DNA of 64,000 nucleotides from an uncultured Candidatus Saccharibacteria bacterium (lineage in GTDB: Bacteria > Patescibacteriota > Saccharimonadia > Saccharimonadales > JAGQNK01), in assembly GCA_964636435.1 (NCBI GenBank), contig CAZWRS010000003.1, positions 1,212 to 65,211 on the forward strand, written 5' to 3'. Below the pieces are notes generated by a model, which searched no databases, was not told the DNA's origin, and was given only the letters and a program-made list of their open reading frames with translations. Shown here piece by piece: positions 22,146 through 46,682 of the stretch. The translations under genes and the position numbers were made by a program. How positions within the stretch are numbered: position 1 is the first letter of the stretch; every line of letters begins with the position of its first letter.

Positions 22146-22733
22146 TTATTTTGGCGGCGTGTTAATGACTTTGTCTACAATGCCGTATTCACGTGCTTCT
22201 TCTGCGGTCAGCCATTTATCACGCTCCATGTCGTCGTGGATTTTCTCAACTTTCTGGCCAGTATTGTTGGCCATGATTGATTCAAGCAGCCGCTTAACAC
22301 GCAGGCTTTCGCGCAGGTCAATCTCCTGGTCGGTGACCTTACCGCGTGTACTGGAGCTTGGCTGGTGTATCATGACGGTTGCATGCGGCAGCAGGAAGCG
22401 TTTACCTTTGGTGCCAGAGCTTAGCAGAAATGCTGCGGCACTGGCCTGCATACCGATACCAACGGTTTGCACATCAGCCTTCACATATTGCATGGTGTCA
22501 TAAACTGCCAGCGCATCGTAGACGCTCCCGCCTGGACTATTGATGTAGAGGAAAATATCCTTCTTGGAGTCTTCATTATCCAGAAATAACAACTGCGCCG
22601 TCACTAAGTTAGCAGTATGCGGGTTAACGTCCTCGCCGAGAAAGATGATTCGGTCACGGAGTAACCGTGAGTAAATATCATAGGCACGCTCTAGGCGGCC
22701 TTCTTGTTCAATGACAGTTGGAATAAGTGGCAT
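22146..22733 (-). CDS. clpP: ATP-dependent Clp protease proteolytic subunit
   Basis: [32 protein letters not shown] and MIHQP are ClpP signatures. The start was trimmed to ATG 22733 ([10 protein letters not shown]), which is preceded by GAGGGA. Confidence 0.95.
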
Positions 22734-22784: not shown

Positions 22785-22826
22785 AGCATACAAAACTAGC
22801 ACTCTATGGTCAAGAGTGCTAGTTTT
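22785..22826 (-). promoter_or_regulatory. CIRCE-like inverted repeat (HrcA-type operator) with embedded promoter upstream of clpP
   Basis: CTAGCACTC-N9-GAGTGCTAG lies at 22796-22822, against the CIRCE consensus TTAGCACTC-N9-GAGTGCTAA. The minus-strand -35 TTGACC (22808-22813) sits in the spacer, with the -10 TATGCT (22785-22790) 17 nt away. Confidence 0.7.
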
Positions 22827-23049
22827 TGTACAAGGTCAGATCTGAGATATATTCAGCTAAAATTTCCTCGGCGTATGGAATATCATCCTGTGAGGCCACA
22901 AGATGATATAGCTCACTCGTCAACGCATGAGGCAGTGCATATTTCATACCCAAATAGTCCAGATCGGTGGCCCACTGATTGAGATCATCCTGTTCGTGCA
23001 CTTGCCAGCCGTCTTGCGGCTGTCGTTCGAAATCTGATTCTATCGCCAT
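22819..23049 (-). CDS. Hypothetical small acidic protein (76 aa)
   Basis: The ORF has no SD. A tandem TATAGT TATAGT (23050-23061) lies immediately upstream of the ATG, making it a leaderless candidate. Its stop codon lies inside the CIRCE arm. No family recognised. Confidence 0.45.
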
Positions 23050-23087: not shown

Positions 23088-23390
23088 CTAGATTGTATTC
23101 TGTCTACGCTCGCCATGGGCCATGATTCGTGACACCCCGACCCCGCCAAGTGTCAGTATAGCTAAACTACCGATGACCCCAGCACCTGACTGTATGACGC
23201 GATCTGGCCAGCCCGCGTCCATCCTCTCTGCAGCATAGAAAGCGGCAGTTGATAGGGCCGCAGCAACCCCAGCCCCGCCTGCTGCCCGATATGCCGAGCG
23301 CTTCTCTGCATCCCAAAATATAGCATCGACTGCCTGACGAGAACTCTCTAGCGTATTTTCCGCAAACAGAGGGTCAGAACAAGCGCTCAT
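23088..23390 (-). CDS. Hypothetical Ala/Gly-rich membrane protein (100 aa, about 2 TM)
   Basis: The ATG overlaps the tig stop by 1 nt (TAATG), implying translational coupling. Hydrophobic segments are GAGVAAALSTAAFYAA and GVIGSLAILTLGGVGV. Confidence 0.5.
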   Translation of the reverse strand: MSACSDPLFAENTLESSRQAVDAIFWDAEKRSAYRAAGGAGVAAALSTAAFYAAERMDAGWPDRVIQSGAGVIGSLAILTLGGVGVSRIMAHGERRQNTI

Positions 23391-26605: not shown

Positions 26606-26690
26606 TGGTGGGCGAGAAAGGACTTGAACCTTCACACCTTGCGGCACGTGCTCCTAAGGCACGCGTGTCTACCAATTCCACCACTCGCCC
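26606..26690 (-). tRNA. tRNA-Leu (anticodon UAG), type II with long variable arm, CCA encoded
   Basis: The reverse complement is GGGCGAGTGGTGGAATTGGTAGACACGCGTGCCTTAGGAGCACGTGCCGCAAGGTGTGAAGGTTCAAGTCCTTTCTCGCCCACCA. It has a 7-bp acceptor stem, a GGAATTGGTAGAC D-region typical of tRNA-Leu, the anticodon stem-loop CGTGC-CTTAGGA-GCACG and a GGTTCAAGTCC T-arm. Confidence 0.9.
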
Positions 26691-39795: not shown

Positions 39796-40572
39796 TTAAC
39801 GCTTGAGGCGCGACGCAAGGCTGCGCGCCGATGATGAACGCCGGGTCGCAGACGATGACCCGGCGTTCTTACTTCGGGCGGGTTGCGCAACTACGATCTC
39901 TCCAAACAACATCTTGCCAGAAGAAGTCTGATGCGTCTTGGTAATGTCTACCTTAACTGTCTTGCCGACAAACTTTGCAGCGTTCTCCACGACTATAAGC
40001 GTGCCGTCATCCAGGTAGCCGGCACCCTGCTTGGCATTACTGCCTTTTTGTATGATTTTGACAGTCCTTTGCTCCCCCGGCAGTGCGGTCGGCCGCAAGT
40101 GCTGGGCCAGCTCGTTGACATTCAGGACTTTAACGCCATCTATTTCTGCAACCTTACCGAGATTATAATCGGTGGTATATAGCGGGGCTTTGAGCTTTTG
40201 AGCGAGCGCGACGAGCTTGTTATCCACGGCGTGCACATGCGGGATCGACGTTCTATCTATCACCACCTGCACATCGTCCAGCTCTTGAAGGTCATGGACC
40301 ACATCAAGTCCATAACGTGCCCGCGATCGCTTATGGGCGTCGGCGCCGTCAGCCAGTAATTGCAATTCATGAATGATAAATTCCGGGATAACGAGCGTGC
40401 CAGGCACAAAGCCTGATCGCGCCAGCTCGATAACTCGTCCGTCAATCAACGCACAGGTATCAAGTATCACCTTCGCATTGCCCTTTCCCGGCAGAAAATT
40501 TTTACCGCGCTGCTGCGTGTAGAGCAATGCCAGGATTAACACTAGTAGAAGAAACTGCAGTACATCAATCAC
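39796..40572 (-). CDS. PIN and TRAM domain protein (YacL-like), N-terminal TM
   Basis: ILDTCALIDGR is a PIN acidic motif, and the C-terminal VKVDITKTHQTSSGKMLFGE is TRAM-like. It lies directly downstream of radA, as yacL does in Bacillus. Confidence 0.75.
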   Translation of the reverse strand: MIDVLQFLLLVLILALLYTQQRGKNFLPGKGNAKVILDTCALIDGRVIELARSGFVPGTLVIPEFIIHELQLLADGADAHKRSRARYGLDVVHDLQELDDVQVVIDRTSIPHVHAVDNKLVALAQKLKAPLYTTDYNLGKVAEIDGVKVLNVNELAQHLRPTALPGEQRTVKIIQKGSNAKQGAGYLDDGTLIVVENAAKFVGKTVKVDITKTHQTSSGKMLFGEIVVAQPARSKNAGSSSATRRSSSARSLASRLKR

Positions 40573-41919
40573 TTAATCTTTCTCCAGAAATGTATTTAAA
40601 GCGGTACGCACGTCTTTGACACCAACGTACCCGTTTGGTGTTTTGCCAGACTTTATGACTGGTCCGATAGCCGCCTCGAAACCAAGTTTTCTGGCTTCAG
40701 CAACGCGTTTATCAAGGAACGGCACGTGCCTGATTTCGCCCGAAAGCCCCAGCTCGCCAAACACAACGGCATTCGCTTTCAGCTGCAAACCCCTGGCGGC
40801 GGAGGCAATAGCCATAACGATAGCTAGATCAGCCGCTGGCTCGCTCAGCTTGATACCACCCACGATGTTTACATAAATATCCTGATCGGCCAAATTAAGC
40901 TTCGTCCGTTTTTCCAGCATCGCCACCAGCAGGTTCACCCGGTTTAAATCAATACCGCTAGCTGCCCGCTTGGGATAACCATAGCTCGTGCGATTGACGA
41001 GCGCCTGGACCTCGACGAGCAGCGGACGGGTACCCTCAAGTGTCGCCAGCACTACCGATCCATCACTTATCTGCCGCTCTGCGAGCAATGCTGCTGATGG
41101 GTTTGCAACTGGCTGCAGCCCATTGTCCACCATTTCAAATATGCCCGCCTCATTCGTAGAGCCGTAACGATTCTTAACCGCCCGCAGTACCTTAAAGCCA
41201 CCATACCGGTCGCCCTCGAGCTGTAGAACCACATCCACCACGTGCTCGAGCACCTTCGGGCCGGCGATTGAACCTTCCTTGGTGACATGCCCAACAAGAA
41301 TAATTGCCGTATCGGTTTGTTTGGCCGCAGCCGTTAACAGCTGGGTGCTGTTAGTAATTTGGCTAACGTTCCCGGCTGCTGAGGAAATAGCGGCACATGA
41401 GATGGTTTGTATGGAATCAACTACAACGAGCTTGTAGCCACCACCGGCAATTGTAGCGGCAATATCATCAGCACTTGTACTGGTGGCCAGCTGCAGATGC
41501 TTACCACTGGTACCAAGCCGTTCTGCACGGATACCTATTTGATGCGCAGATTCCTCGGCGCTTACATACAACACTGGCTGCTTGGTGCTTAACGAATGCG
41601 CCAGTTGTAAAAGAAGTGTGCTTTTCCCGATGCCCGGCTGACCAGCAATTAAATTTACGCTACCAGCAACTACGCCGCCACCAAGGACTGCGTCAATCTC
41701 TGCAATGCCAGTCGATAAGCGTTCGTGGTCCTTAGCCAGCGACGCACTAACAGATTGCGGAGCAAGCTGTTGTCCGCCGCCCTTCACGCTTGCTGACGTA
41801 ATAACCAGCTGCTCCTCGAGTGTATTCCATTCACCACAATTGAAGCATCGTCCGCTCCAAGTTGAACTCTCAGCCCCACAATTAGAGCAGACGTATTTTT
41901 TTGCTTCCTTCTTAGCCAT
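40573..41919 (-). CDS. radA: DNA repair protein RadA/Sms
   Basis: The N-terminal zinc finger is CSNCGAESSTWSGRCFNCGEW. It also has Walker A GQPGIGKST, the KNRYG motif and a Lon-like C-terminal domain. Confidence 0.96.
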   Translation of the reverse strand: MAKKEAKKYVCSNCGAESSTWSGRCFNCGEWNTLEEQLVITSASVKGGGQQLAPQSVSASLAKDHERLSTGIAEIDAVLGGGVVAGSVNLIAGQPGIGKSTLLLQLAHSLSTKQPVLYVSAEESAHQIGIRAERLGTSGKHLQLATSTSADDIAATIAGGGYKLVVVDSIQTISCAAISSAAGNVSQITNSTQLLTAAAKQTDTAIILVGHVTKEGSIAGPKVLEHVVDVVLQLEGDRYGGFKVLRAVKNRYGSTNEAGIFEMVDNGLQPVANPSAALLAERQISDGSVVLATLEGTRPLLVEVQALVNRTSYGYPKRAASGIDLNRVNLLVAMLEKRTKLNLADQDIYVNIVGGIKLSEPAADLAIVMAIASAARGLQLKANAVVFGELGLSGEIRHVPFLDKRVAEARKLGFEAAIGPVIKSGKTPNGYVGVKDVRTALNTFLEKD

Positions 41920-41939: not shown

Positions 41940-42890
41940 TTACAGCGTCGGACGGCTATCGAGCGACTGATATAACTCCTGTGCCTCCAGTGCAATTTCT
42001 CGGTAGTCACTTATAAGGCTATTGTGTCGGGAAATAAGCGAGTTCAGAAGTCGAATATTATCGTTATACGCCGCGACCCGGGCATTATAAGCGCTTGCCT
42101 GTTCATTGGTCGTCACGCTACCACGTGTGCGTTGCAGCTCATCCCGCTCGATCGCCAATGTCTGTTCGAGCTGTTCAATTTCGCCTCTCAGCCCTGATAT
42201 CTGGAGCTCGAGCGATGCAGCCTGATTACGCCGCTTGGTCAGCACCGATTCGTACTTCTCCGAATACGCCACAATAGCGAGCCGATTGGTGAAGTATCTC
42301 TCGTAATAATCCTCAAGCTCAGGCGGCAAATTCCGTACCTCGGTTGCCAGTATCGAGTGTAACTCATTCGGCACCACCGAAGGGTCACGACTACGGTAAT
42401 TATCAATTGAGCGCTGAATACGCTCGTCAGTGACCTTAGCAAACGCATCACCTACCATTTGATCAACGCGCTCTCGCTCTGCCATGCTAAGCCGGTCATA
42501 CGCCGCATGCAGCAGCTCATGCGCTGCCGTCACCTGTTCGACCCCTTCAAGCCGCTCATCATCAACATCGAACAAAAAGATGCCGTAATTCGAGACATAG
42601 CACCCTAGTACAATCGTGTGTTCACCAAAACCTTTACAGTTTTGATTGAACTCCTCTCTGCCATTCAGCTGAGGGTGGTAAACGTAGAACAATCGGCGCG
42701 CAGGATTGGTCATAGTGGTATCAAAAGCTAGCTGCTCAATCCGCTGCGGCGGGTCGTAATTACGCAGGCGCACCCAATCGTAAATATCTTGTTTTCGCGT
42801 CCAAGCAAAAGCAGTAGCTGCCAGCACAACCAACAGGAAAACCAGAACTATCGCCTGGCCGGAATTTCGGCGGTGCAAGGTCTTTAGCAT
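41940..42890 (-). CDS. Hypothetical membrane-anchored protein with HExxH motif and C-terminal coiled coil
   Basis: The 316-aa ORF has the N-terminal TM AIVLVFLLVVLAATAFAW and TAAHELLHAAY (HExxH). The C-terminal roughly 100 aa is heptad-like (LELQISGLRGEIEQLEQTLAIERDELQ). No family recognised. Confidence 0.5.
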   Translation of the reverse strand: MLKTLHRRNSGQAIVLVFLLVVLAATAFAWTRKQDIYDWVRLRNYDPPQRIEQLAFDTTMTNPARRLFYVYHPQLNGREEFNQNCKGFGEHTIVLGCYVSNYGIFLFDVDDERLEGVEQVTAAHELLHAAYDRLSMAERERVDQMVGDAFAKVTDERIQRSIDNYRSRDPSVVPNELHSILATEVRNLPPELEDYYERYFTNRLAIVAYSEKYESVLTKRRNQAASLELQISGLRGEIEQLEQTLAIERDELQRTRGSVTTNEQASAYNARVAAYNDNIRLLNSLISRHNSLISDYREIALEAQELYQSLDSRPTL

Positions 42891-42916: not shown

Positions 42917-45415
42917 TTAAGCAACGGGTTCCGCAATCTCAGACTCAGCATTATATACCAGCTGATTGTTCTTAGCGCTGATTCGGATAATGTGACCCTT
43001 GTGATACTTACCGTCAAGCAGCTCATGCGCGATATGATCCTCGATAGTGTCAGCTATCAGTCGGCGCATTGGACGCACGCCATTAGTAGCGTCGTACCCT
43101 TGCTCGAGCAAGAGATTCTTGGCTGCTGGTGTCAACTGCAAGTCAATTCCATGCTTCACTAAACGATTGCGCAGCTCATCGATTTGCAGATCGAGAATCT
43201 TGAGCACGTTTTTGCGTGTCAGAGCATGGAAGACAATGGTCTTATCAATACGGTTCAAGAACTCCGGACGCATCATCTTCTTGAGTTCATCGAGTACCTT
43301 ACTCTTGTTACGCTCGTGCAGTGCATCAAGGTCGTTTAGATCACCACGGTTATCGGCGTGGAAGCCAAAGTCAGCTTCTTTCTGTAGCTTATCGGCCCCA
43401 ATGTTACTGGTCATGATGATGATGGTGTTCGTGAAGTCAATCCGGCGACCCTTGGCATCGGTCAAGTAACCGTCCTCGAGCATCTGGAGGAGCATGTTGA
43501 AGACATCGGGATGAGCTTTTTCAATCTCATCGAACAGTACCAAGCTGTACGGCTGGCGTCGTATCTTGTCCGTCAACTGACCGCCTTCGTCGTACCCGAC
43601 ATAGCCAGCCGGTGCGCCGACTAGCCGCGATACGTTATGATGCTCACCAAACTCGCTCATGTCAATCTTGACCAGCGCGTCTTCACTACCGAAGAACTCA
43701 CGAGCCAGCACGCGCGCCAGCTCCGTCTTACCGACACCGGTGGGACCGAGGAAGATAAACGAACCAATCGGCCGCTTACCACTACCAATGCCGACACGGT
43801 TACGACGGACAGCCTTGGCGACAGCTTCGACCGCTTCATTTTGGCCGATAACATACTTGCGCAGCGTCTTCTCTAGATTTAGCAGATACTTGGCCTCGGA
43901 ACGAATGACTTTAGTAACCGGTACGCCTGTCATGCGGGCGACCACTTCAGCAATGTTTTCGCTCGTGACCGTCAACTGATTAGCAGACTTACCTTCAGAT
44001 TCGAGCTGTTTAAGCTCATCTTTGATTTGTGACGCACGCTGCTTGAACTTAGCGGCCTTTTCGTAATCTTCACTGTCAACAGCATCCTCAATACGAACAT
44101 TCACCAGCTTCAGTTCTTTCTGTAACTTGCGTACTTCTGGTGGCGTCTTACCTTTGTCGACGCGTAAGTGTGCGGCAGTCTCGTCTAGTAGATCAATTGC
44201 CTTGTCGGGCATAAACCGATCATTGATGTACCTTTTTGCCAAATTCACAGTTTCTTCTAGTACTTCATCGCTCACTTTTACGCCGTGGAATTCTTCGTAG
44301 TGCTTCCGTAGACCCTTCAGGATGGCGACAGTTTCAGCCGGAGTCGTCTCTGGGACTTGTATCGGCTGGAAGCGACGCTCTAGGGCGGCATCCTTCTCAA
44401 CGTGCTTGGTGTACTCGGCGGTAGTGGTCGCACCAATAACCTGTATCTTACCGCGGGCGAGCGCTGGCTTGAGTATATTTCCAGCATCCATCGCTCCTTC
44501 AGCAGCCCCAGCACCAACAATTAAATGCATCTCATCAATAAACACGATTGTCTTCGTGTCCTTCTCGAGTTCGGACATTATCTTCTTGAGTCGCTCCTCG
44601 AATTCACCGCGGTATTTGGTGCCGGCTATCATGCCAGCCAAGTCGAGCATAACAATCCGCTTGTCGAGCAGGCTATCAGGCACATCTTCGTTGACAATCC
44701 GCTGAGCCAAACCCTCAACGATAGCTGTTTTACCGACACCAGGCTCACCAATGAGCACTGGGTTGTTCTTCGTTCGACGGTTTAAGATGGTGATAACGCG
44801 CCTGATTTGTGCTTCCCGGCCAACAACTGGGTCAAGCTTGCCGTCCCGTGCCTGAGCCGTCAAATCCGTACCAAAGAAATCGAGCGCGGTTTTCTTGGTC
44901 TTTTTCACCTTCCGACGGCCATCCGTAGAAGAAGAGCTGTCATCTTCGTACTGTTGGCGATTAAGGAATTGCTCCAGTTCAGAGACTAACGCGTCAACAT
45001 CTACGTTCATATCTCGAAGCAGTATCGTTGCTCGTGCGTTCTTCTGGCTCAGCACGCTATATAGTATGTGCTCAGTACCGCAAAATTCCTGGTTGAAGTC
45101 TTGCGCTACATCGTAGGCCATCTTAAGCGTCAGCTTGGCCGTTTCACTCAAGCCTTTGGCACCCATATTTATAACTAGTGTCTTTGGTGTGAGGTTCAGC
45201 GCCAGACGGGCACGGTCCAGTGTCACACCAGCACCTTCAAGTATTTTAGAGCCCATGCTGGTGTCTTGTGCGAGCACACCAAGCAGCAAGTGCTCAGTAC
45301 CGACGTAGGCGCTACCGAAGCTCCGCGCTATAGCATCGGCGTGCTTCAAACTTTGCAGCGCGTTATCAGTAAGATGATTCAAAAATTCTTGGAAATCAGA
45401 GTTTTGTGGCATCAT
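42917..45415 (-). CDS. clpC: ATP-dependent Clp protease ATP-binding subunit ClpC
   Basis: The 832-aa ORF has a duplicated Clp_N repeat, two AAA+ modules ([16 protein letters not shown]), a short UVR-like linker ([20 protein letters not shown]) rather than a long ClpB M-domain, and an FGF loop. Confidence 0.9.
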
Positions 45416-45463
45416 AAGCGTTCTTCCACCTATCAGCGATTGTCTTAAATTATCGCTAAGTCT

Positions 45464-45506
45464 ATGATACCAAAACTAGCACTCAAGGGTCAAGAGTGCT
45501 AGTTTT
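45464..45506 (-). promoter_or_regulatory. Second CIRCE-like inverted repeat with embedded promoter, upstream of clpC
   Basis: CTAGCACTC-aagggtcaa-GAGTGCTAG lies at 45476-45502. The minus-strand -35 TTGACC (45488-45493) sits in the spacer, followed by an 18-nt spacer and the -10 TATCAT (45464-45469). The element is 61 nt from the clpC ATG. Confidence 0.7.
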
Positions 45507-45521
45507 CTCACATTTCTATCG

Positions 45522-46682
45522 CTATTCGCCGTGCTCTTCGATAGCCTCAAGCAGGCTGCTTTCCAGTTGCTCTTTCTTTTTGAGCTTTGGTGCCTGGCGC
45601 GGCTTTAGCTCCTCTTTCTCGGCTACTGGTTCCGGCGCTTTTTCCCGCTCAGCGTTGATATCTATCTCCAGGCCTACCAACTTACTAGCCAAGCGTACGT
45701 TCTGCCCGCTCTTGCCGATAGCGATGCTGAGCTGGTCTTCCGGCACAAAGACTTTTGCCTTGCCGGCTGCTTCATCAATCTCGACGCGATTGACCTTGGT
45801 CGGTGACAGGGCGTTCACAATATATTCCTTCTGATCGTCAGACCAGACAACAATATCAATCTTCTCTTGTTCACCAATTTCACTCATAACCGCATTGACG
45901 CGCGTGCCATGCCCGCCCACAAATGTACCTACCGGGTCAACGCCCTGCACGGTGCTGGCAACCGCAATCTTGCTGCGTACACCTGCTTCACGTGAGATAC
46001 CCTTGATTTCGACAGAACCGTTTTCCATCTCCGGCACCTCAGCACGGAACAGCCACTCGATAAACTGCGTGCTGCCTCGCGACACAACCAACTGGGGTCC
46101 ACGCGGACCGCGTTCAACGTCTTTCAAAAACACCTTCAGACGTTGGCCTGGGTAGTAGCGCTCCCCCTGGATCTGCTCACTCATTGGCATGATGCCCTGC
46201 GCCTTGCCGAGATCTACGCGCACAATGCGGCCCTCGACCCTGGCGACGATACCGTTGATCACAGTACCAATCTTGTCCTCGTACTCTTCCATGATGATTT
46301 CGCGCTCAGCTTCGCGCAGGCGTTGCAGGATCACCTGCTTAGCAGTCTGCGCGGCAACACGACCGAAATTTTCGATAGCTTCGTGCACCTCAATCTCGTC
46401 ACCGATCTTGGCATCTTTCTTCATCGTCTGTGCCTGGGCCAGACTTATCTCGAAATGCTCATCATCGACTTTTTCGACGACCTCTTTCGTTACATAAGCG
46501 TCTACTTCACCCGAATTAAGGTTCATGCTCACGCGCACTTCTTGCTCGCGGTCGCCATAATCGCGGCGATAAGCGGCTGCCAGTGCCTGTTCAACCACCT
46601 CTTGGACTGTATCTTCCGGTAGGTTTTTTTCTTCGGCAATCGACTTGAGTGCTAGAGCTAGCTGTTTAATATCCAAATCCAT
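45522..46682 (-). CDS. nusA: Transcription termination/antitermination factor NusA
   Basis: The 386-aa ORF has an N-terminal domain, an S1 domain (GTVINGIVARVEGRIVRVDLGK) and two KH domains (GKSGQNVRLASKL). Confidence 0.96.
   Translation of the reverse strand: MDLDIKQLALALKSIAEEKNLPEDTVQEVVEQALAAAYRRDYGDREQEVRVSMNLNSGEVDAYVTKEVVEKVDDEHFEISLAQAQTMKKDAKIGDEIEVHEAIENFGRVAAQTAKQVILQRLREAEREIIMEEYEDKIGTVINGIVARVEGRIVRVDLGKAQGIMPMSEQIQGERYYPGQRLKVFLKDVERGPRGPQLVVSRGSTQFIEWLFRAEVPEMENGSVEIKGISREAGVRSKIAVASTVQGVDPVGTFVGGHGTRVNAVMSEIGEQEKIDIVVWSDDQKEYIVNALSPTKVNRVEIDEAAGKAKVFVPEDQLSIAIGKSGQNVRLASKLVGLEIDINAEREKAPEPVAEKEELKPRQAPKLKKKEQLESSLLEAIEEHGE

Follow-up and report, generated by a model that had tools for sequence, protein, structure and literature searches.

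The window described here, the whole stretch of 64,000 nt of DNA that was analysed, comes from an uncultured Candidatus Saccharibacteria bacterium (contig CAZWRS010000003.1 of assembly GCA_964636435.1, positions 1,212 to 65,211), and its point of interest is a palindromic element ahead of clpC. The element occupies 45476-45502 and reads, on the minus strand, as an operator of the CIRCE class (an inverted repeat controlling the expression of chaperones), the site at which the repressor HrcA is predicted to bind. It stands in the 106-nt interval between nusA (45522-46682, minus strand; TIGR01953, 380 bits) and clpC (42917-45415, minus strand), an interval that holds no open reading frame (ORF). 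Behind clpC, on the same strand, come a gene for a membrane-anchored HExxH protein of 316 aa with an HELLH motif and a coiled coil (41940-42890, 26 nt past clpC), radA/sms (40573-41919, 20 nt past the HExxH gene; TIGR00416, 525 bits with a cutoff of 403) and a YacL-like PIN/TRAM gene that abuts radA (39796-40572; Pfam TRAM, with a PIN-type N-terminus matching NF010335). The gaps within this group thus measure 26, 20 and 0 nt; past the PIN/TRAM gene comes that of the penicillin-binding protein PBP1A, which is convergent. Short gaps and a convergent next gene argue for a single four-gene operon in which the PIN/TRAM gene is the last and the HExxH gene a probable partner of clpC; nusA is the upstream neighbour and is placed outside the regulon.

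The 832-aa product of clpC has two Clp_N repeats, two AAA+ modules and a short UVR-type middle domain in Pfam. Its best full-length matches in the PDB are 6em8 (ClpC of Staphylococcus aureus), 3j3t (ClpC of Bacillus subtilis) and 8a8u (ClpC1), and these ClpC structures were matched in a single full-length stretch, whereas ClpB was matched in parts only. An FGF tripeptide can be read at the position of the ClpP-docking loop. Judged by these features the protein is a true ClpC with a loop of the ClpP-docking type, and joint control with clpP would therefore be functionally sensible. The clpP gene itself (22146-22733, minus strand, 195 aa; NF001368, 289 bits, the start at 22733 being set by alignment of homologues) lies elsewhere in the window, behind a sister CIRCE operator at 22796-22822 (minus strand) with arms identical to those of the clpC copy.

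The clpC operator has the form CTAGCACTC-N9-GAGTGCTAG. The full sequence of 45476-45502 is CTAGCACTC-AAGGGTCAA-GAGTGCTAG, with AAAA at 45472-45475 and TTTT at 45503-45506, which together extend the palindrome to 45472-45506 (minus strand) and its arms to 13 bp. Each arm agrees with the canonical pair TTAGCACTC/GAGTGCTAA at 8/9 positions, and the spacer has the canonical 9 nt. When the window was searched with the pattern CTAGCACTC-N9-GAGTGCTAG, allowing up to three mismatches and using 100 dinucleotide-preserving shuffles as background, two sites were found in the 64 kb, at 22796-22822 and 45476-45502, both of them perfect. Chance would provide 0.02 copies per window, and none of the 100 shuffles held two or more. 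The clpC and clpP copies have the same arms and share the GGTCAA core of the spacer.

A consensus scan places a promoter inside and just beyond the element. The -35 hexamer TTGACC (45488-45493, minus strand) lies within the CIRCE spacer and is followed, 18 nt further on, by the extended -10 motif TGgTATCAT (45464-45472, minus strand; hexamer at 45464-45469), so that TTGACC-18 nt-TATCAT meets the consensus at 10/12 positions and has the TG extension as well. The extended -10 begins 4 nt past the promoter-proximal arm, and the TTTT of the extended palindrome is the source of the T in its TGn motif. At clpP the corresponding promoter is TTGACC at 22808-22813, 17 nt, and TATGCT at 22785-22790, again on the minus strand. 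Because the arms are palindromic, only the spacer can encode direction. Further downstream, a Shine-Dalgarno (SD) sequence, AGGTGG, can be read at 45426-45431 (minus strand), 10 nt ahead of the clpC ATG; this ATG, at 45415, is 61 nt from the end of the arm at 45476.

Much of this had been proposed in a first-pass annotation of the same DNA. Direct reading of 45472-45506 bears out its 27-nt sequence with AAAA and TTTT extensions, the pattern search of the window its claim of two copies with the same arms and GGTCAA core, and the consensus scan its TTGACC in the spacer with TATCAT 18 nt downstream. The 61 nt that it gave to clpC and its placing of the element directly after nusA also hold (the nusA stop is at 45522-45524, 19 nt before the element), as do the order clpC, HExxH protein, radA and PIN/TRAM, confirmed by profile matches and ORF layout, and the lack of ctsR and mcsAB from the block, which is evident at the locus from the 106-nt gap without an ORF.

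The extent to which this arrangement is kept was gauged from 80 loci of species-representative genomes, found by their ClpC (68-86% identical to that of the window) and labelled mostly as Candidatus Saccharibacteria or Saccharimonadales, the remainder having generic or other labels. The order pepN(-)-nusA-clpC-HExxH-radA-(PIN/TRAM)-PBP1A(-)-tyrS is common to most of them. A CIRCE-type palindrome precedes clpC in 79/80 species, with the strict core GCACTC-N9-GAGTGC in 78 and with two mismatches in L040; the remaining locus, L078, has no CIRCE core ahead of clpC, and its ClpC match begins only at residue 40. In 1.5 Mb of sequence the core was met 81 times, 78 times before clpC, once before hrcA and twice in the window. 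The arms in relatives are mostly the canonical TTAGCACTC-N9-GAGTGCTAA, with the outer triplets TTA in 61/78 and TAA in 55/78, and the most variable arm position is the outermost base, which is C/G in the window. With the sites anchored on the element, the arms carry 1.86 bits per column, spacer positions 1-5 carry 1.46 and the rest of the spacer 0.21, while the flanks fall to 0.15-0.20 bits per column over 30 nt upstream and 45 nt downstream. A profile of this shape is what a site for a sequence-specific protein classically leaves as its phylogenetic footprint.

The position of the element is likewise informative. Its distance from the clpC start clusters at 54-82 nt (median 69), its distance from the nusA stop runs from -4 to more than 7000 nt (median 335), and it stays before clpC where grpE is the upstream gene. 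For clpP a sample independent of the motif was drawn, of seven ClpP homologues (86-94% identical) picked for long contigs only. The element, with TTGAC or TTGCA in its spacer, was found ahead of clpP in all seven, in the neighbourhood hisS-x-tig-(small ORFs)-clpP ... rpoB.

The promoter is conserved together with the operator. A TTGAC-type box lies in the spacer, on the coding strand of clpC, in 79/79 sites, at spacer positions 1-5 in 73 of them; its sequence is TTGAC throughout, except for TTGCA in five and TTGAT in one. A TAnnnT box, often with TGn ahead of it, follows 16-18 nt past TTGAC, just beyond the right arm. Where TTGAC has moved to spacer positions 5-9, as at one clpP and five clpC sites, the -10 box is displaced equally, by 4 nt, which argues that TTGAC is a -35 box and not a repressor recognition sequence. 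Near-identical strains found in metagenomes by exact protein matches have a promoter region identical to that of the window.

The regulator expected for such an operator is encoded in relatives. In L044 the order is nusA, CIRCE, hrcA (249 aa), grpE, CIRCE, clpC and radA, and L051 and L230 have the same arrangement, so that in all three hrcA and CIRCE-clpC are found on one contig; in L229, CIRCE-hrcA-grpE is followed by CIRCE-dnaK-dnaJ. The short hrcA genes concerned lie at L044:8552-9301, L229:10001-10711 and L230:10001-10720. The L044 protein has both the Pfam HrcA and HrcA_DNA-bdg domains, matches TIGR00331 at 1e-51, and its winged helix aligns to the structure of HrcA from Thermotoga maritima. 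In the short protein, residues 12-137 correspond to positions 1-123 of TIGR00331 and residues 117-233 to only the last half of PF01628. An AlphaFold model is confident in the winged helix only (mean predicted local distance difference test score, 49) and is too poor to tell which domain is missing. There are at least 8000 candidate database matches to this HrcA, and the best 120 are all at least 79% identical and 234-246 aa long. By these counts the short HrcA is common in the lineage and co-occurs with CIRCE-clpC on single contigs.

A metagenome scan for TTAGCACTCTTGAC-N4-GAGTGC returned at least 120 contigs. The loci were in this case chosen by the motif itself; the first gene on the TTGAC strand was counted, its class being checked by Pfam, and most other listed contigs ended before any gene. 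Among the contigs listed, that gene was a short hrcA (217-291 aa) in at least 35, dnaK in at least 21, clpP in at least 10 and clpC in at least eight, followed by a gene for a Zn-ribbon protein (at least five), groES (at least four), hsp20 (at least four), a ClpB-like ATPase (at least two), groEL (at least one) and dnaJ (at least one). The ClpP proteins of the module-bearing contigs (at least 10) are 61-84% identical to that of the window. CIRCE stands directly ahead of hrcA in L044, L229, L230 and at least 35 metagenome contigs, an arrangement by which hrcA in the relatives is, on the face of the gene order, autoregulated through the same element.

We regard it as very probable that the element is a CIRCE operator, a predicted HrcA binding site, fused to a sigma-70-type promoter that drives clpC-HExxH-radA-PIN/TRAM. 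An HrcA dimer on the two arms would cover the -35 box, abut the -10 box and so exclude RNA polymerase. Expression of the four-gene operon would thereby be held to a basal level, as would that of clpP by way of the sister copy. When unfolded proteins titrate GroEL/ES, HrcA would lose activity, the clpC and clpP promoters would fire together, and the Clp ATPase and peptidase would be induced alongside the chaperones. We infer that HrcA binds and represses, that it depends on GroEL, that the four genes form an operon and that hrcA is present in the genome from which the window derives. From sequence comparison HrcA appears to be the common regulator of chaperones and Clp protease in this small-genome lineage. 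The TM7x transcriptomes, the only published ones for Saccharibacteria, speak neither for nor against this reading: clpP and a Clp ATPase (named clpB there) rise together in stable symbiosis, as shared control would have it, and the chaperones diverge from them.

The first-pass annotation had likewise spoken of an operator of the HrcA/CIRCE type, and this is supported by the conservation at clpC and clpP (the element is kept at 79/80 and 7/7, respectively, in the relatives where it had proposed to look), by the modules at chaperone genes and by hrcA on CIRCE-clpC contigs. Its further suggestion, that synteny had been retained while the regulator was swapped, stands in part: the operator is of the HrcA/CIRCE type and CtsR boxes are lacking, but there is no support for a CtsR-controlled ancestor. 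CtsR is a regulator of the Firmicutes type, and the clpC-radA neighbourhood predates it and is found more widely. To suppose that different regulators were recruited independently is therefore simpler than a swap, and it is more economical to speak of HrcA as recruited specifically in this lineage.

Several observations weigh against the reading just given. The outermost arm base in the window is C/G where the consensus has T/A. No hrcA lies within the 64-kb window. The HrcA of the lineage, at 234-249 aa, is some 100 aa shorter than the canonical protein (338 aa in T. maritima), and that of L044 scores 176 bits against TIGR00331, below the cutoff of 197; for both reasons oligomerisation and GroEL dependence of the short HrcA may differ from the canonical. 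Lastly, most chaperones in the TM7x transcriptomes are higher at initial encounter, and such divergence between clp genes and chaperones is not predicted by a single simple regulon.

In the relatives, position 1 of the clpC site is C in 4/78 and position 27 is G in 11/78, and the two positions are therefore weakly constrained. The presence of the variant in both sites of the window, and in both arms, suggests matched drift within one genome. The CTAG...CTAG outer-base variant recurs here and there, at L223/L224:2941-2967 (the clpP site of L223/L224) and in L019, L054 and L068.

The alternative that survives best, although it is improbable, is a real operator to which, in this lineage, not the truncated HrcA but another regulator binds, or one at which HrcA acts without GroEL-dependent control. 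The proteins of Saccharibacteria, with 235-249 aa as against 338, align confidently to solved HrcA in the N-terminal winged helix only, and to their scores below the TIGR00331 cutoff must be added that clp genes and chaperones do not co-vary in TM7x. Both HrcA Pfam domains are nevertheless present in the short protein, short members of the family are already catalogued (NF003033, 264 aa), and the arms are those of the canonical CIRCE, which HrcA recognises in many phyla. What is more, every hrcA examined has the element ahead of it, an arrangement that is classical for autoregulation.

Less likely still is that the palindrome serves nusA as an intrinsic terminator, possibly a bidirectional one, and as nothing else, acting as an RNA hairpin with a U-run and having no operator function. 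The window taken by itself might suggest this, the palindrome being 19 nt past the nusA stop and forming a 13-bp hairpin of -19 kcal/mol (z = -5.0) that is followed by UUUU. A terminator scan, however, did not call it, the loop being 9 nt long with only four T's after the stem, and the relatives speak for an operator. A T-run of at least four past the hairpin is found in only 5/78 of them, the AAAA/TTTT extension is unconserved, the arms are conserved at the level of sequence and beyond what mere pairing would require, and the distance that is constrained is that to clpC, not that to nusA. The same sequence also precedes clpP, hrcA, dnaK and groES in unrelated contexts. The first-pass annotation had named terminator-only behaviour as fatal to its claim, and neither the T-tract nor the distance to nusA is conserved as a terminator would have it. 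The hairpin may all the same have a secondary terminator role in the window's genome.

Control of clpC and clpP by a CtsR-type repressor, as in Bacillus, with the palindrome incidental, has hardly any standing. The spacer GGTCAA does resemble one CtsR heptad (A/GGTCAAA), and the order clpC-radA-PIN/TRAM recalls that of the Bacillus ctsR operon, but reading GGTCAA as the complement of the -35 hexamer TTGACC explains it better. The tandem heptad A/GGTCAAA-NAN-A/GGTCAAA, sought with up to three mismatches, gave two matches in the window where 4.9 were expected, none of them near clpC or clpP, and with up to two mismatches it gave none around the clpC promoters of 78 relatives; the CtsR boxes that the first-pass annotation had listed as a possible refutation are thus lacking at both clp promoters of the window and at those 78. 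In the window nusA and clpC are direct neighbours, and so they are in the relatives, apart from three with hrcA-grpE between them; ctsR, mcsA and mcsB are therefore absent from the operon. That the two copies are a dispersed repeat, a REP-like (repetitive extragenic palindromic) sequence or mobile remnant of no regulatory meaning, can be set aside even though they are near-identical down to the A4/T4 flanks and to an outer C/G pair that is unusual, because there are only two in 64 kb, both exactly at Clp gene promoters, because 78/79 cores outside the window in 1.5 Mb of related DNA precede clpC and the other one hrcA, and because the flanks are unconserved between species.

The HrcA/CIRCE reading gains definition from comparison with known systems. 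In B. subtilis, the transcription start precedes the CIRCE operator, whereas here operator and core promoter overlap, with the -35 box in the spacer. The Bacillus paradigm is followed in L229, where hrcA has its own operator and is succeeded by grpE and dnaK-dnaJ, the repressor presumably being titrated by GroEL. The lineage departs from it in an HrcA that is about 100 aa shorter and in a set of targets that takes in clpC and clpP and, through their place in the operon, radA and the PIN/TRAM gene. As for the operon itself, the order clpC ... radA ... PIN/TRAM (yacL-like) is shared with ctsR-mcsA-mcsB-clpC-radA-disA-yacL of B. subtilis, whereas ctsR, mcsA, mcsB and disA are absent, an extra gene, for an HExxH membrane protein, intervenes, the upstream neighbour is nusA, and a CIRCE operator takes the place of the CtsR heptads. 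The inverted repeat itself, TTAGCACTC-N9-GAGTGCTAA, is the same as in Bacillus (work of 1997, as cited in PMC6305308 and PMC7737663).

Proteases have been placed under HrcA before. In Mycoplasma pneumoniae HrcA/CIRCE controls Lon, PepA, Pip and ClpB together with DnaK, DnaJ and GroESL (PMC7737663). There too the genome is small and one regulator presides over folding and degradation, but the protease controlled is Lon, Mycoplasma being without ClpP and ClpC, whereas here it is ClpC-ClpP, and the phylum is Patescibacteria. Streptococcus salivarius has a CIRCE ahead of clpP, as here, and its clpP is dually controlled by CtsR and HrcA (Chastanet and Msadek 2003, as cited in PMC6305308); the Saccharibacteria differ in having no CtsR box at the clp promoters and in having clpC as a target as well. 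At groEL2 of Myxococcus xanthus, too, operator and -35 region of the controlled promoter overlap (PMC9040617, citing Zhuo et al. 2018). That promoter depends on sigma-32 and drives a chaperonin gene, whereas here a sigma-70-like TTGAC sits at a fixed position in the spacer, a layout found throughout the regulon.

To our knowledge, almost nothing is known of transcriptional regulation in Patescibacteria, and a literature search found, in the library covered, no paper linking HrcA or CIRCE to Saccharibacteria or Patescibacteria. What is described here is an extension of the known HrcA/CIRCE system to new regulon members, in a design that is lineage-wide; it is a textbook extension and not a new mechanism. 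For a phylum-level lineage that is poorly understood it offers a first concrete circuit of regulation, a regulon made up of hrcA-grpE, dnaK-dnaJ, groES/EL, clpP and clpC-HExxH-radA-PIN/TRAM, in which the chaperone repressor, and not a regulator of the CtsR or ClgR type, appears to control the Clp protease. A bolder proposal can be put forward tentatively, though we would not wager on it: in Saccharibacteria, and perhaps across Patescibacteria, the truncated HrcA, of about 240 aa, could govern proteostasis as its sole master regulator, acting through a portable cassette of about 45 bp with the -35 box inside CIRCE that is set before chaperones, clpC and clpP and reaches radA via the operon, so that quality control and recombinational repair would share one GroEL-titrated switch. 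There is also an annotation gap to be closed, as the short HrcA falls under the TIGR00331 cutoff and its records are named just 'transcriptional regulator' at NCBI, whereas some at JGI are named 'heat-inducible transcriptional repressor'. Saccharibacteria are now genetically tractable (PMC10633639), and a short conserved promoter cassette that is presumably stress-inducible might be of use in them.

Some further features of the locus deserve mention. The HExxH protein has an N-terminal transmembrane helix and a C-terminal coiled coil, and its sole Pfam match is a weak one to AAA_13. Most of the 80 relatives have its gene in the same place, with clpC before and radA after it; the sub-lineage of L044, L051 and L230, where hrcA-grpE separates nusA and clpC, lacks it. 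While infB follows nusA in many bacteria as a nusA-infB operon, nusA is followed throughout Saccharibacteria by clpC or by hrcA-grpE-clpC (window 45522-46682; loci L011-L090).

Two structures can be folded from the clpC leader (45414-45458, minus strand): the 5' one is the stem-loop UAGCGAU...AUCGCUG, the other a hairpin in which the SD sequence and part of the AUG are paired and which in the window has an energy of -13.6 kcal/mol (z = -4.0). At the same place subsets of relatives have AGCGA...TCGCT, GATGC...GCATC or TAGGC...GCCGC. A conserved RNA thermometer in the leader is not supported, as 53 relatives have a mean z of -0.78 and a mean pairing probability of the SD sequence of 0.38.

Upstream of clpP, a 76-aa ORF (22819-23049, minus strand) ends in a TAG stop that is part of the CTAG opening the clpP CIRCE arm, and so the outer C of the variant at this site falls together with a stop codon. 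The stretch from this ORF to tig holds another, of 100 aa (23088-23390); neither has a Pfam match, and both are called as genes in related contigs. An Rfam scan of the whole window found no RNA family at the operator, and its sole match was a tRNA gene at 26609-26690 (minus strand; RF00005, 57 bits). The 64 kb were also searched for dnaK, groEL/ES, dnaJ and hsp20, none of which is present.

Among the motif-selected metagenome contigs, the Zn-ribbon proteins encoded first past the module (L095, L098, L109, L134 and L166) match Pfam Zn_ribbon_8 and are of the FmdB type, CxxC...CxxC. Some of these contigs appear GC-rich, and the small Zn-ribbon protein may be an unrecognised member of the HrcA regulon in another lineage.

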